64,000 nt of DNA from a virus. Taxonomy: Duplodnaviria; Caudoviricetes. Every line of letters starts with the position of its first letter. Position 1 is the stretch's first letter. Location: the IMG/VR virus record IMGVR_UViG_3300042541_001363, positions 19,118 through 83,117 of that record; one strand, written 5' to 3'. The notes below the pieces were generated by a model that was given only the letters and a program-made list of their open reading frames with translations, was not told the DNA's origin and made no database searches. The position numbers and the translations under genes were made by a program. Shown piece after piece: positions 2,651-12,709 of the stretch.

Positions 2651-3979
2651 TTATTTAGTTTTATTTTTAACTGTTCTAGGTTTTCGTTTAGTAACCTTAT
2701 TTTTAATATTTGAAACGGTATATCCATTTGTTGTTTCGTTGTAAATCAATCCGTGATTACCACCATTAAATAGGTTAAAAATTAGGTCGTCATATATTTT
2801 AACTAGTTTACTATTATCAGCGTAATATCGTTCTAGTACTTTATCATTTCTTTTATTGTATTCATCAATATTACTATCATGATTTTCTAATATCCAATTT
2901 AATTTTTCAGAAGCGGCTAAAGTATCCGAACCTTCATAATAATAACCAATATCTTTACACATTGGTGCGTTATGTAGTACTGGGTAACCCATGTATGCTG
3001 CGTCTAAATATAAATAATTTAATGGGTTTAAAAGTTGATGACAAACTAAAATATCAATATGTTGTGTTAATATGAATGCGGTTTGGAATCTACCTTCTGC
3101 GGTTATTTTATTATCTTTATATAAGTCAAAAGTTTTAATCATACCCATAAATTCACGATGTTTAGCAACATCCATCGCATTGGTTAACATAAGACCATCT
3201 ATTTTATTTTTACCTATTTCACTTCGATATGATTGTTCAGCAATCATTGATGGGATTAGACAAAATTTAACTATATTTATATTGGGTTCCATGATTCCAA
3301 TTTTCTTTTTTTCTTTATTCAAATCATATTGCCATCCTTTTTTATAAATACCTTTTTTATGTGAACTTTCAATCTCTATCAATGATTCCAATAAAAATTT
3401 ATTATGCCATATGAATGGTACTATAGTAGCGTTTGTTCTGTATAATGTATTATAATAGCCTTTATTAACTTCGTCTTGTTGTGGTACATACCAAATTTCA
3501 TCATATTGTTCATCAAACTGATATATTGCGGTGTCTGACGATTCTTTAAAAATAATATTTTCCATGGAAATAACATAATTATTTCCACATTTATAACCAA
3601 TTATTTTTTTATTTTCACCACTAGCTTTAAATTTTTCTATTTCTGAATTATGTATTTGTGAACCCATACATATCATCAAATCCATATCTAAATAATTTTT
3701 AGAGAAATTAACAAATTTAATATCTTTTAAATATTTAGGGATTAATATTTCATCACCATCTTCATTAATATCTTTGATGCAATATTCTTTAGCAATATCT
3801 GTGGAATTATTTTCTGTCCAATCTATATTAAAAGTGTTTAATAAATAAACGTCATAATTTAATTTAGAATTTTTTAGTAATCTATATAGAACTAATACAT
3901 TTTGTTTTATACCATTGCTCCATATGGATTCTTCATTACTTTTTAATCCGATTGTAATACCAATTTTTATTTTTTTCAT
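2651..3979 (-). CDS. DUF2827-family (glycosyltransferase-like) protein
   Basis: N-terminal KIGITI...SIWSNGIKQNV, then IGIMEPNINIVK...P and HQLLNPLNYLYLDAAYMGYPVLHN...GYYY. These match my recollection of DUF2827. Confidence 0.7.
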   Translation of the reverse strand: MKKIKIGITIGLKSNEESIWSNGIKQNVLVLYRLLKNSKLNYDVYLLNTFNIDWTENNSTDIAKEYCIKDINEDGDEILIPKYLKDIKFVNFSKNYLDMDLMICMGSQIHNSEIEKFKASGENKKIIGYKCGNNYVISMENIIFKESSDTAIYQFDEQYDEIWYVPQQDEVNKGYYNTLYRTNATIVPFIWHNKFLLESLIEIESSHKKGIYKKGWQYDLNKEKKKIGIMEPNINIVKFCLIPSMIAEQSYRSEIGKNKIDGLMLTNAMDVAKHREFMGMIKTFDLYKDNKITAEGRFQTAFILTQHIDILVCHQLLNPLNYLYLDAAYMGYPVLHNAPMCKDIGYYYEGSDTLAASEKLNWILENHDSNIDEYNKRNDKVLERYYADNSKLVKIYDDLIFNLFNGGNHGLIYNETTNGYTVSNIKNKVTKRKPRTVKNKTK

Positions 3980-4033
3980 TTTGTTAAATAATTTGTAATA
4001 ATTATAGTTATTTTTATTATTAAAGTAAAGTTT

Positions 4034-11300: not shown

Positions 11301-12709
11301 ATGAAAGAATATGTATATATAATACTGTAACATTTAGTTCAACGACAAATACTGAAATACTATTAAATGATTTAACGATTAATGGTGGTTATTTAATTTC
11401 GGATATTGATAATCTAAATAGTGCTTTAGCTGACAACACTATTGGTGTTAACGGACACGTTGAGGGTTTTGAATCTAAAGCTTTAGGTGAAAATAGTCCA
11501 CACGCTGAAGGTATTGGAACAATTGCGAGTGGTAATTATTCGTCTCACGCTGAAGGCGGTTATACATTGGCTAGTGGTAATTATTCACATGCTGAAGGTT
11601 ATGGGACAATAGCTAGTGGTGACCAAGCACACGCTGAAGGTCAAGGTAATATAGCTAGTGGTGTATATTCACATGCTGAGGGTAATAATACTAAGTCAAT
11701 AGGTGATGGTTCACACGCTGAAGGTCAATATACAACAGCTATTGGTGATTATTCACATGCTGAGGGTAATAATACAATAGCTATTGGTTGGTATTCACAC
11801 GCTGGTGGTGGTGACTCAATTGCTAGTGGTGATACTTCTTTTATTCATTCAAAAAATTCATTAGTAACTGGTAATCGTTCAGCGGTATTGGGTGGTATAG
11901 GTATCACTGGAACAACTGATGATACAGTATACGTACCTTATTTAAATGTACAATCAGCAACAACTAATAATACATTAGCACAAGTATTGGTTATTGATAC
12001 TAATGGTAATGTTAAAAAACGTGATGTTAGTTCAATTAGTGGTGAATCTTCATTCACTGGTGGTACAGTTACTGGTGCTACTTCATTCACTAATAATTTA
12101 ACAGTTAGTGGTGGTACTTCAATATTTAGTGGTAATTCATCATCTGACCTAGTTAGAATAACACAAGACGGTTCTGGAAACGCATTGGTTGTTGAGGATG
12201 TTAATAATCCAGATGGTACTCCATTTGTAATTGATGCAAATGGTAATGTTGGTATGGGTACTCTTACACCTCAAAATGTACTACACGTTAAAGCTAATCC
12301 GACTAGTACTGGAACTGCTACTATAAGAGTAGAATCAGATGCTTCAACGTCAAATTCATCAATTTCTTATTATTCTGGAGGAGTTCATAGATGGGAAGTT
12401 GGTACTGGTATTTCTTTAGGGGCTCCATATGAAATATATGATAGAGTAGGAGGACAAACGAGATTCTCCATAACTACAAGTGGTGCGGCAGTATTTCCAA
12501 ATGATAATGTTGGTATTGGTACAATAACACCATCAGAAAAATTAGATATTAGTGGGGCTATTAAAATACAATCTGGTGGTTATACTAGTTTAACAAATGG
12601 GGCGACAACACCAGTACCAACTGGTGGTGCTGGTACTATGGTATTTGATACAGTTAACTCACATTTCTTTGGGTGGAATGGTACTTCATGGAGACAATTA
12701 GATAATTAA
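8396..12709 (+). CDS. large tail fibre/adhesin with YadA-head-like (Hep_Hag-type) SHAEG repeats
   Basis: Dozens of ~14-aa A.G..SHAEG..T repeats, four copies of an ~85-aa insert, and C-terminal NVGIGT.TP trimeric beta-repeat motifs. No autotransporter barrel is visible. Confidence 0.8.
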   Translation: MIGNLTLRTIISPYADDVTRNSVMSFSDVDNNFLFLKGNIIYTADTNGNMVTLKRLNGEEISFLTNGEAAVTGGTYNPSSGTATFTNSTGGTFNVTGFNIGGSGGDTYWTSGSTGNYSIKTINNSGLDATGNYAVSEGYDTLASGQASHAEGHNTTASGNNSHTEGTDTTAGWKGFSVDSIVDGVITLQASYGDVTSEFVGMFIISNFGKRYAYNTVTFSSTTHTEILLDDTSVNSGGGTIIVDLDNLNSPYADYNMGDYSHAEGYYSRSLGYGSHAEGGFRIGNYIKIGGLAIGQGSHAEGAATTAIGEASHAEGGDSKAIGDYSHAEGIGSYSYGDASHAEGRLTTTYGNYSHSEGFYTTAIGNQSHAGGQNAIASGDTSFIHSKNSIVLGNRSVVLGGQNITGSINDTVYVPYLNVQSASTDNAITEILVIDTNGDVKKRDVNTIGGGSGDSYWTSGSTGNYSVKTINDSTTNATGNYAVAEGYNTTASGNYSTASGYESIAGWKGFTIDSVVDGLITLNTSYGDVTGEFTGNKVILDTKIYVYNTVTFSSTTNTQILLDDTTAIGYNYVADINNLNSQYADNYIGISAHAEGYYTIAGGNYGSHAEGYGTIASGNYSHAEGRQTIASGLESHAEGEQTKAIGDASHAEGASTIASGNQAHAEGEQTIASGDRSHAEGYYSLASGYGSHAEGGWNDNGEILSGGTALGKASHAEGQETIAGWKGFSVDSTVSGVITLNSSYGDITGEFTGNKVILDTKIYVYNTVTFSSTTNTQILLDDITASGVYVADLDNLNSQYADTLDVFGRSAHAEGNNTKSLGVDSHAEGWNTIATGAYGSHAEGDFTTASGDRSHAEGERTTASGNRSHAEGELTTASGMRSHAEGYLTVAQGHNSHAEGNNARSLSNASHAEGSNTTAIGENSHAEGQYTISGWRGFTVDSVVNGLVTINLSYGDITSEFTGNKVILDERICIYNTVTFSSTTNTEILLNDLTINGGYLISDIDNLNSALADNTIGVNGHVEGFESKALGENSPHAEGIGTIASGNYSSHAEGGYTLASGNYSHAEGYGTIASGDQAHAEGQGNIASGVYSHAEGNNTKSIGDGSHAEGQYTTAIGDYSHAEGNNTIAIGWYSHAGGGDSIASGDTSFIHSKNSLVTGNRSAVLGGIGITGTTDDTVYVPYLNVQSATTNNTLAQVLVIDTNGNVKKRDVSSISGESSFTGGTVTGATSFTNNLTVSGGTSIFSGNSSSDLVRITQDGSGNALVVEDVNNPDGTPFVIDANGNVGMGTLTPQNVLHVKANPTSTGTATIRVESDASTSNSSISYYSGGVHRWEVGTGISLGAPYEIYDRVGGQTRFSITTSGAAVFPNDNVGIGTITPSEKLDISGAIKIQSGGYTSLTNGATTPVPTGGAGTMVFDTVNSHFFGWNGTSWRQLDN

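Follow-up and report, generated by a model that had tools for sequence, protein, structure and literature searches.

Does a tailed phage encode enzymes with which its own fibre could be coated with sugar and sulfate? The question is raised by a gene cluster at positions 2651-12709 of a 64-kb stretch of viral DNA (hereafter the window), which is the 3' 64 kb of the 83-kb IMG/VR virus record IMGVR_UViG_3300042541_001363. The original prediction had named seven genes here, read them as one adhesin-decoration cassette taken over as a whole, and proposed that they place sulfated glycans on the virion. All seven are present at 2651-12709, as judged by matches to Pfam, TIGRFAM and PDB entries. Adhesin-type sugar enzymes, a sulfate-donor kinase and a sulfotransferase lie beside a hypervariable fibre gene, so the phage probably coats its own fibres. 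Post-translational decoration of its fibrous virion proteins with sugar and sulfate, by enzymes drawn from three separable modules, is the answer towards which the gene content leans, if gently. The locus is laid out as follows (aa, amino acids; APS, adenosine 5'-phosphosulfate; PAPS, 3'-phosphoadenosine 5'-phosphosulfate; ORF, open reading frame).

2651-3979, minus strand: DUF2827 protein, putative glycosyltransferase, 442 aa (Pfam PF10933)
4034-4612, minus strand: J-domain-like protein, 192 aa, with an HPD motif (DnaJ match below the cut-off)
4659-5099, minus strand: DUF2061 small membrane protein with an N-terminal extension of about 80 aa (PF09834)
5103-5783, minus strand: APS kinase of the CysC type, APS to PAPS (PF01583, TIGR00455)
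5728-6549, minus strand: PAPS-dependent sulfotransferase, 273 aa (Sulfotransfer_3, phrog_27463)
6621-7658, plus strand: TibC/Aah-like GT-B glycosyltransferase, 345 aa (PDB 4RAP; near the TIGR04414 cut-off)
7644-8296, minus strand: orf127 and orf90, hydrophobic ORFs of 127 aa and 90 aa (no family match)
8396-12709, plus strand: YadA-head-type fibre, 1437 aa (YadA_head, PF05658)
12730-13104: orf124

The TibC-like enzyme matches the TibC structure 4RAP with an E-value of 2.2e-29. Enzymes of the TibC family are cytoplasmic protein O-glycosyltransferases, and the roles of individual TibC residues were described by Yao et al. 2014 (PMC4358343). In pairwise alignment the catalytic base Asp110 and the sugar-binding residues Thr226, Lys230, Arg286 and Trp305 of TibC correspond to D98, S214, K218, R266 and W285 of the phage protein, and these five are invariant across 25 phage homologues. 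The position of heptose stereoselectivity is Ser280 here, Pro300 in TibC and Ser294 in Aah. Against TIGR04414, the profile of the BAHT family, the score is 198.9 bits and does not reach the cut-off of 200, with profile positions 27-316 of 374 covered. The earlier identification as a TibC/Aah-like enzyme stands for the GT-B core and for the catalytic and sugar-binding residues; it does not stand for the iron finger of TibC or for the TIGR04414 cut-off. The retained catalytic residues, the missing iron finger and the score below the cut-off together point to a distinct, shorter BAHT-like subfamily with predicted BAHT chemistry. A single-protein query of viral contigs found nothing, and an alignment query found at least 570 TibC-like relatives. 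One cultured phage in the phage collection carries a TibC-like domain, Microcystis phage Mel-JY01 (PP395634), where it forms the C-terminus of a 1226-aa fusion of GT1, TibC-N-domain and GT9/TibC-like parts (L001, 4750-8430). That protein is annotated as 'methyltransferase FkbM' and directly follows a gene annotated as 'structural protein'.

The DUF2827 protein matches PF10933 over its full length (E 1.8e-93, 313.7 bits versus a gathering score of 25). It is a probable glycosyltransferase, a view based on fusions to glycosyltransferase domains, a lead to GT56 and structural inference in a preprint. The fusions, besides one to a TibC-like enzyme that is described below, join DUF2827 to GT_PLOD, GT32-type DXD, GT2, GT25 and methyltransferase domains. 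The nearest named clusters in the ESM Atlas are GT56 at 0.92, which is a lead only. A model built with AlphaFold2 (AF2) from 24 close sequences had a mean predicted local distance difference test score (pLDDT) of 52.7, too poor for a fold search, and comparison of the DUF2827 and TibC-like family profiles revealed no relationship. The J-domain-like neighbour has a DnaJ match of 22.1 bits versus the Pfam cut-off of 27.8, and its HPD motif is invariant in four orthologues. It adjoins DUF2827 in 55 of 77 viral DUF2827 loci; of these, only 10 have a TibC-like gene, 7 a sulfotransferase gene and 6 SHAEG repeats. The pair is usually found near the gene for a family-B DNA polymerase (PolB), orf124 and orf127, including in loci L220-L271. 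Prediction of a complex between the DUF2827 and J-like proteins scored 0.00 and is evidence neither way. When genome contigs were scanned with the DUF2827 alignment, one contig was returned, L100 (CAYGYN010000024.1; 5.3 kb), from a 'Candidatus Woesearchaeota' metagenome-assembled genome (MAG); its DUF2827 protein is 64% identical to that of the phage, and the contig probably belongs to a phage and was placed in the MAG by mis-binning. Two distant DUF2827 representatives were available on contigs shorter than 5 kb only.

The APS kinase is identified by PF01583 (E 1.6e-66, 223.5 bits versus 21.1) and TIGR00455 (253.8 bits versus 138.7). Its true start probably lies further in than the called one; the relative in L003 is called at 214 aa. 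The sulfotransferase matches Sulfotransfer_3 above the Pfam cut-off (E 1.6e-18) and phrog_27463 (E 6.5e-38). Its 5'-phosphosulfate-binding (5'-PSB) and 3'-phosphate-binding (3'-PB) motifs, SLPRxGS and VRD...S, are conserved in 10 sequences; the SLPRxGS core is invariant, and the last Ser of the 3'-PB motif is Ala in some of them. The AF2 model (pLDDT 75) has a sulfotransferase fold. A Foldseek search of the PDB gave at least 109 matches at E <= 0.001, and all those listed are sulfotransferase-fold proteins that bind PAPS or PAP (3'-phosphoadenosine 5'-phosphate). Human TPST1/2 (E 3e-8) and the CurM sulfotransferase come first and almost equal, with template modeling (TM) scores of about 0.5-0.6, and carbohydrate and cytosolic sulfotransferases follow close behind. 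The best PDB match by sequence is TPST1, a weak one with an E-value of about 0.1. The DUF2061 protein matches PF09834 with an E-value of 8.9e-13. At least 434 sulfotransferase relatives are found in viral contigs. A cytidylyltransferase-like domain of the HIGH type, about 140-150 aa long and with a faint match to ATP sulfurylase, is fused to the APS kinase of relatives or encoded after it. Possibly this domain forms APS as a minimal phage enzyme and would so complete a PAPS pathway. Such relatives of the APS kinase are encoded at:

L012, 3206-4255, minus strand
L101, 5208-6711, minus strand
L046, 12548-13385, plus strand

The 1437-aa protein is a plausible virion fibre, and would accordingly be present in the particle. 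It matches YadA_head (PF05658) with an E-value of 5.4e-36 and contains 31 exact SHxEG motifs, mostly spaced by 14 residues. A conserved N-terminal anchor is followed by five SHxEG repeat blocks with four insert domains and by a variable tip. In the PDB it matches the heads of BpaC and Hep_Hag, both from Burkholderia, and of YadA. No YadA_stalk or autotransporter anchor family was found in it by the Pfam scan; the protein is therefore adhesin-head-like but no autotransporter. Its YadA-head-like repeats are as had been described, and its Ser/Thr richness is only moderate, Ser plus Thr making up 22.8% of residues. The first 70 or so residues are common to the proteins at the same position in the relatives L003, L101 and L096, which are 2268 aa, 1008 aa and 978 aa long; the longest contains 75 SHxEG motifs, the other two none. 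DNA identity to the closest relative is 97.0% over 2647-8881 and 95.7% over 12730-15000 of the window; the fibre body matches it at the level of the repeats only, at about 70%, and the tip (12043-12729) has no match at all. A retained attachment end and an exchangeable distal end are usual for receptor-binding fibres. The earlier reading as a tail fibre agrees with this behavior, the N-terminal anchor being kept and the distal part swapped in a backbone that is 96-97% identical. Cultured Flavobacterium and Verrucomicrobia phages also have SHAEG-like repeats, in proteins that are annotated as tail fibre or tail spike.

The sequence ATATTTATA is located 80 nt upstream of the fibre gene (window 8316). 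It is also found on the plus strand upstream of the sheath gene and of others, several of them structural (e.g. 24274, 34680 and 47263). It occurs 17 times versus 7.9 expected, a count that no shuffle attained, and could serve as a late-promoter element. Upstream of the sulfotransferase operon and of the DUF2827 gene there is instead TTTACT-N17-TATAAT. Segments like the SHAEG fibre, with 39-66% identity over 38-234 aa, are present in the ORFs at 26985-29084 and 30343-32928 of the window and at 5310-7391 of L011. One upstream protein of the same phage bears a chaperone-of-endosialidase domain. The phage appears to have several related fibre proteins, which could be further substrates.

Gene neighbourhoods were counted for the 80 best of the at least 570 viral TibC-like relatives and for 80 of the at least 434 sulfotransferase relatives, genes being taken as linked at 10 kb or less. 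Near TibC-like genes a sulfotransferase gene is found in 15 of 80 cases, DUF2061 in 10 and APS kinase in 8, counts that include two or three near-identical copies of the present locus (L002-L004). Near sulfotransferase genes the corresponding numbers are 32 of 80 for DUF2061, 28 for APS kinase and 26 for a GT9/TibC-like gene. One co-opted cassette is not borne out by these neighbourhoods. The enzymes form instead three mobile sub-modules that also occur separately, namely the J-like protein with DUF2827, the sulfotransferase with APS kinase and DUF2061, and the TibC-like enzyme, and the sub-modules recombine across hundreds of viral contigs. Two arrangements join them. The TibC-like gene is divergent from the sulfotransferase operon, with a spacer of 71 bp, and this divergent pairing recurs in relatives. 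P0249 is a natural 748-aa fusion of a full-length TibC-like enzyme (77% identical to that of the window) with DUF2827 (59% identical). Its gene has syntenic neighbours, namely those for the sulfotransferase, APS kinase, DUF2061, J protein, fibre and PolB, and the modules are functionally tied.

Linkage of the enzymes to fibre genes was assessed in loci de-duplicated at 90% identity with at least 18 kb of sequence retained, in which a Ser/Thr-rich or repeat fibre-like ORF was sought within 10 kb. Such an ORF is present in 20 of 26 TibC-like clusters (77%), in 22 of 28 sulfotransferase clusters (79%) and in 16 of 28 DUF2827 clusters. The base rate, taken from two complete genomes, is 20% and 28% of positions lying that close to a fibre-like ORF; 'fibre-like' was defined ad hoc, and both of these genomes themselves carry the module. 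The anticipated link to phage fibre genes is real, at 77-79% of the long de-duplicated loci for the TibC-like and sulfotransferase genes in viral contigs. It is not a link to SHAEG fibres, as had been supposed, the majority of partners being collagen-like (GTS/GSS)n proteins or others rich in Ser/Thr. No YadA_head match was found in three complete genomes with TibC-like genes. A collagen-like gene is located within 10 kb of the TibC-like gene in three of five large genomes, although no more than one to three loci with collagen-like genes are present per genome. More distant jumbo phages carry the TibC-like domain at the end of long proteins that combine methyltransferase, DXD transferase, GT1 and GT9 domains. 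These multi-enzyme genes adjoin a sulfotransferase gene, an APS kinase gene, a second GT9-like gene and genes for giant (GTS/GSS)n proteins. GTS/GSS triplets make up nearly the whole of these giant proteins, which reach lengths above 2500 aa, have Ser plus Thr up to 57%, score as collagen repeats and in some cases end in a chaperone-of-endosialidase domain. Among others, they are encoded at:

L028, 11749-17925, minus strand
L036, 3-6230, plus strand
L061, 13961-19945, minus strand (with a chaperone-of-endosialidase C-terminus)

One fibre mixes GSS/GTS and SHAEG repeats. In a second lineage, known from the relative L012 and its longer contig, with proteins 50-76% identical, the same enzymes occur with a 1073-aa SHAEG protein beside DUF2827.

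From these genes the following series of steps is proposed. In the cytoplasm of the host, the TibC-like enzyme would attach a first sugar to Ser/Thr hydroxyls of the fibre, possibly heptose from host ADP-heptose, as Ser280 resembles Ser294 of Aah. DUF2827 would add or extend a sugar, and its fixed J-domain partner may recruit DnaK of the host to the fibre, which is long and folds slowly. The APS kinase would convert host APS to PAPS, with which the sulfotransferase would sulfate either the glycan or the protein of the fibre. The end product would be an anionic, glycan-coated fibre. The presumed benefit may lie in host range, in protection from proteases or predators, or in binding to polysaccharides.

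Several observations weigh against this proposal. The iron finger of TibC (Cys339, 342, 358 and 370) is required for assembly of the dodecamer and for binding of the substrate TibA (PMC4358343). It is absent from the phage enzyme, in which the last aligned position is followed by 38 residues with a single Cys. The beta-hairpin thumb around Phe265/Val266 appears shortened as well, the phage protein having two gaps across it in the pairwise alignment. Substrate recognition as known from TibC is therefore not transferable to the phage enzyme, and a TibC-type dodecamer and substrate grip seem unlikely. No ATP sulfurylase or HIGH-type gene was found in the 83-kb record, so that APS would come from the host or from the remaining genome. 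The loci share ancestry, and the enrichment counts are therefore not independent events. In two of the five large genomes the collagen-like genes are about 40 kb from the TibC-like gene, and many TibC-like loci of 50-59% identity have no large fibre gene inside 10 kb. The J-like protein and DUF2827 also occur beside non-SHAEG fibres without TibC-like or sulfotransferase genes; one relative has PolB, orf124, a non-SHAEG fibre, J and DUF2827, with TibC-like and sulfotransferase genes absent. Finally, the enzyme operon and the fibre gene are on opposite strands and are therefore transcribed separately.

In a rival reading the enzymes would remodel the surface or the proteins of the infected cell (lipopolysaccharide, capsule, S-layer or adhesins), blocking superinfection or changing cell behavior, with a fibre that merely shares the accessory region. 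Iyer et al. 2021 (PMC7824862) read the glycosyltransferase clusters of jumbo cyanophages in this way, with the outer polysaccharides of the host as the target. The small membrane proteins of the cassette (DUF2061, orf127 and orf90), the operon opposite to the fibre and the several TibC-like loci without a nearby fibre are in line with it. However, no flippase, polymerase, lipid-carrier transferase or export gene was found in the cassette by profile scans, and the TibC family acts on proteins in the cytoplasm (PMC4358343). Linkage to Ser/Thr-rich fibres is three times the base rate, and bacterial DUF2827 genes are tied to adhesin genes rather than to polysaccharide loci. Remodeling of the host surface is accordingly regarded as unlikely.

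A comparably low probability is given to a scheme in which the fibre is the target but the sulfotransferase acts directly on Tyr or Ser/Thr side chains, sulfation and glycosylation running in parallel. The TPST, CurM and carbohydrate enzymes score close together, and the acceptor could therefore be glycan or protein side chains; 'sulfated glycans', as originally worded, are not supported as such, the closest sequence match (TPST1) and fold matches (TPST1/2) being protein-tyrosine sulfotransferases. At the variable positions 5, 6 and 13 of the fibre repeat Tyr ranks with the most frequent residues, 54 of the 80 sulfotransferase loci have no TibC-like gene inside 10 kb, and direct sulfation of hydroxylated collagen-like and tail-collar proteins has been predicted elsewhere (PMC2938197). 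The fold matches are weak, however, with carbohydrate and small-molecule sulfotransferases scoring only slightly lower; the sulfotransferase gene forms a divergent pair with the TibC-like gene, in relatives as in the window; and distant loci place the sulfotransferase within multi-glycosyltransferase islands. The weakest alternative, functionally unrelated modules made neighbours by an accessory-gene hot spot between the structural genes and PolB (J and DUF2827 could, for example, act in replication or on another protein, and the sulfotransferase on a small molecule), draws on the many combinations in which the modules are found and on the many contigs with J, DUF2827, orf127, orf124 and PolB in which TibC-like, sulfotransferase and SHAEG genes are lacking, but is made quite improbable by the TibC-DUF2827 fusion, which joins two modules, and by the neighbours of the sulfotransferase, a GT9-type enzyme being linked to it in 26 of its 80 loci and a fibre-like gene in 22 of the 28 long clusters.

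The record from which the window comes is 23% complete according to CheckV, and the G+C content of the window is about 30%. Among the genes of the window are those for a tail sheath of 950 aa, a baseplate protein of the T4 type, PolB with a LAGLIDADG-type insert that is likely an intein, and many homing-endonuclease-like proteins. The DNA is a fragment of the genome of an uncultured jumbo myophage from lake water. Near-identical DNA was found in lake and freshwater metagenomes of 16 studies in a search of sequencing runs, which listed no RNA run with this sequence. No family matches were obtained for orf127 and orf90 in Pfam, TIGRFAM and PHROG profile scans; orf127 travels with the J/DUF2827 and PolB neighbourhood, and membership of either ORF in the decoration system is doubtful. 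A role of orf124 as fibre chaperone was considered and rejected because orf124 remains beside PolB where no fibre intervenes. Upstream of the cassette, at 424-2362 of the window and 14240-17575 of L011, there are tandem small proteins of lectin-like and arabinofuranosidase-B-like type and a LamG-type protein, putatively further carbohydrate-related virion or accessory genes.

Extended beyond the present locus, fibre decoration by the phage would mean that aquatic jumbo phages widely carry modular islands of adhesin-type glycosyltransferases with a phage PAPS supply, and bear glycosylated, sulfated virion fibres. This wider statement is offered tentatively, as something not quite probable on the data at hand. 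If true, the particle would be the first sulfated phage particle described, and decoration would be added, at a level of its own, to the factors that determine host range or survival. How a phage binds its receptor, which hosts it infects, how stable it is and whether grazers or immune systems recognise it would then depend on the enzymes as well as on the fibre sequence, which bears on genome-based prediction of host range and on phage-fibre engineering. Given at least 570 TibC-like and at least 434 sulfotransferase relatives in viruses, one demonstration would annotate many genes. The locus also offers a handle on the action of DUF2827 on trimeric autotransporter adhesins and on substrate recognition by TibC-type enzymes that lack the iron finger. 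A literature search retrieved no publication on phage-encoded virion sulfation or on TibC-like enzymes with phage fibres, in agreement with the original statement that no description of virion sulfo-glycosylation in tailed phages was known. Sulfotransferase genes are annotated in the literature on cultured cyanophages, without remark on their function; related sulfotransferases are encoded by the cultured cyanophages S-SRM01, S-SKS1 and S-SCSM1.

The closest parallels are bacterial. The presence of DUF2827 genes beside trimeric autotransporters in Burkholderiales, as stated in the original prediction, holds in Burkholderia plasmid records and in a preprint (10.64898/2026.01.22.700529), in which 327 DUF2827 homologues adjacent to trimeric autotransporter genes are reported and proposed as glycosyltransferases. 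On a Burkholderia glumae plasmid a protein of more than 2470 aa (YadA_stalk E 1.6e-110, YadA_head E 2.1e-21) precedes OmpA, TPR and a set of three DUF2827 genes, and on a B. thailandensis plasmid two DUF2827 genes directly follow that of a 2337-aa ESPR protein; a third Burkholderia record in the plasmid collection had no such neighbour. With a TibC-like enzyme, DUF2827 and an adhesin-head fibre, the phage thus has homologues of both the known and the suspected adhesin-decorating families. Particular to the present locus is the combination of a YadA-type fibre with DUF2827, which appears to tie the phage system to bacterial adhesin glycosylation. Like the DUF2827-adhesin pairs of Burkholderia, Veillonellales and Pasteurellales (10.64898/2026.01.22.700529), it has a protein of the same Pfam family with a neighbouring YadA-head protein and a proposed role as cytoplasmic glycosyltransferase. 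It differs in its J-domain partner, in the single copy of DUF2827 (two or three in tandem in bacteria) and in being only about 31% identical to the Burkholderia proteins.

With the BAHT systems (TibC/TibA, Aah/AIDA-I and BimC/BimA) the phage enzyme shares the GT-B core, the catalytic Asp and four sugar-binding residues. It is likewise encoded beside a repetitive beta-structured surface protein, whose head repeats are common to Burkholderia trimeric autotransporters. It differs in the absent iron finger, the apparently shortened thumb and the score just below the TIGR04414 cut-off, and its presumed substrate is a phage fibre without autotransporter anchor. BimC is presumably a BAHT-family protein. 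In a published abstract it is named together with the trimeric autotransporter BimA, and the pairing of BAHT enzymes with autotransporter adhesins, which the original prediction took as established, is confirmed to that extent.

Among phages, the nearest case is glycosylation of mycobacteriophage virions (Freeman et al. 2023, cited in PMC12619734), in which phage glycosyltransferases are also thought to modify the phage's own structural proteins. There the glycans are at the C-termini of capsid and tail-tube subunits and have been shown by experiment, whereas decoration by the present locus is deduced from sequences; the passages of PMC12619734 consulted make no mention of sulfation or PAPS supply. 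For sulfation, the closest precedent is the set of bacterial operons of dioxygenase, sulfotransferase and PAPS synthetase predicted by Iyer et al. 2010 (PMC2938197) to modify collagen-like and tail-collar proteins. As in the present locus and its relatives, a sulfotransferase and a PAPS supply are encoded with collagen-like or phage-fibre-like proteins as proposed substrates. Those operons provide the hydroxyl group by 2-oxoglutarate-iron dioxygenases, of which there are none here; in the present locus the partners of the sulfotransferase are glycosyltransferases, and the genome is that of a phage.

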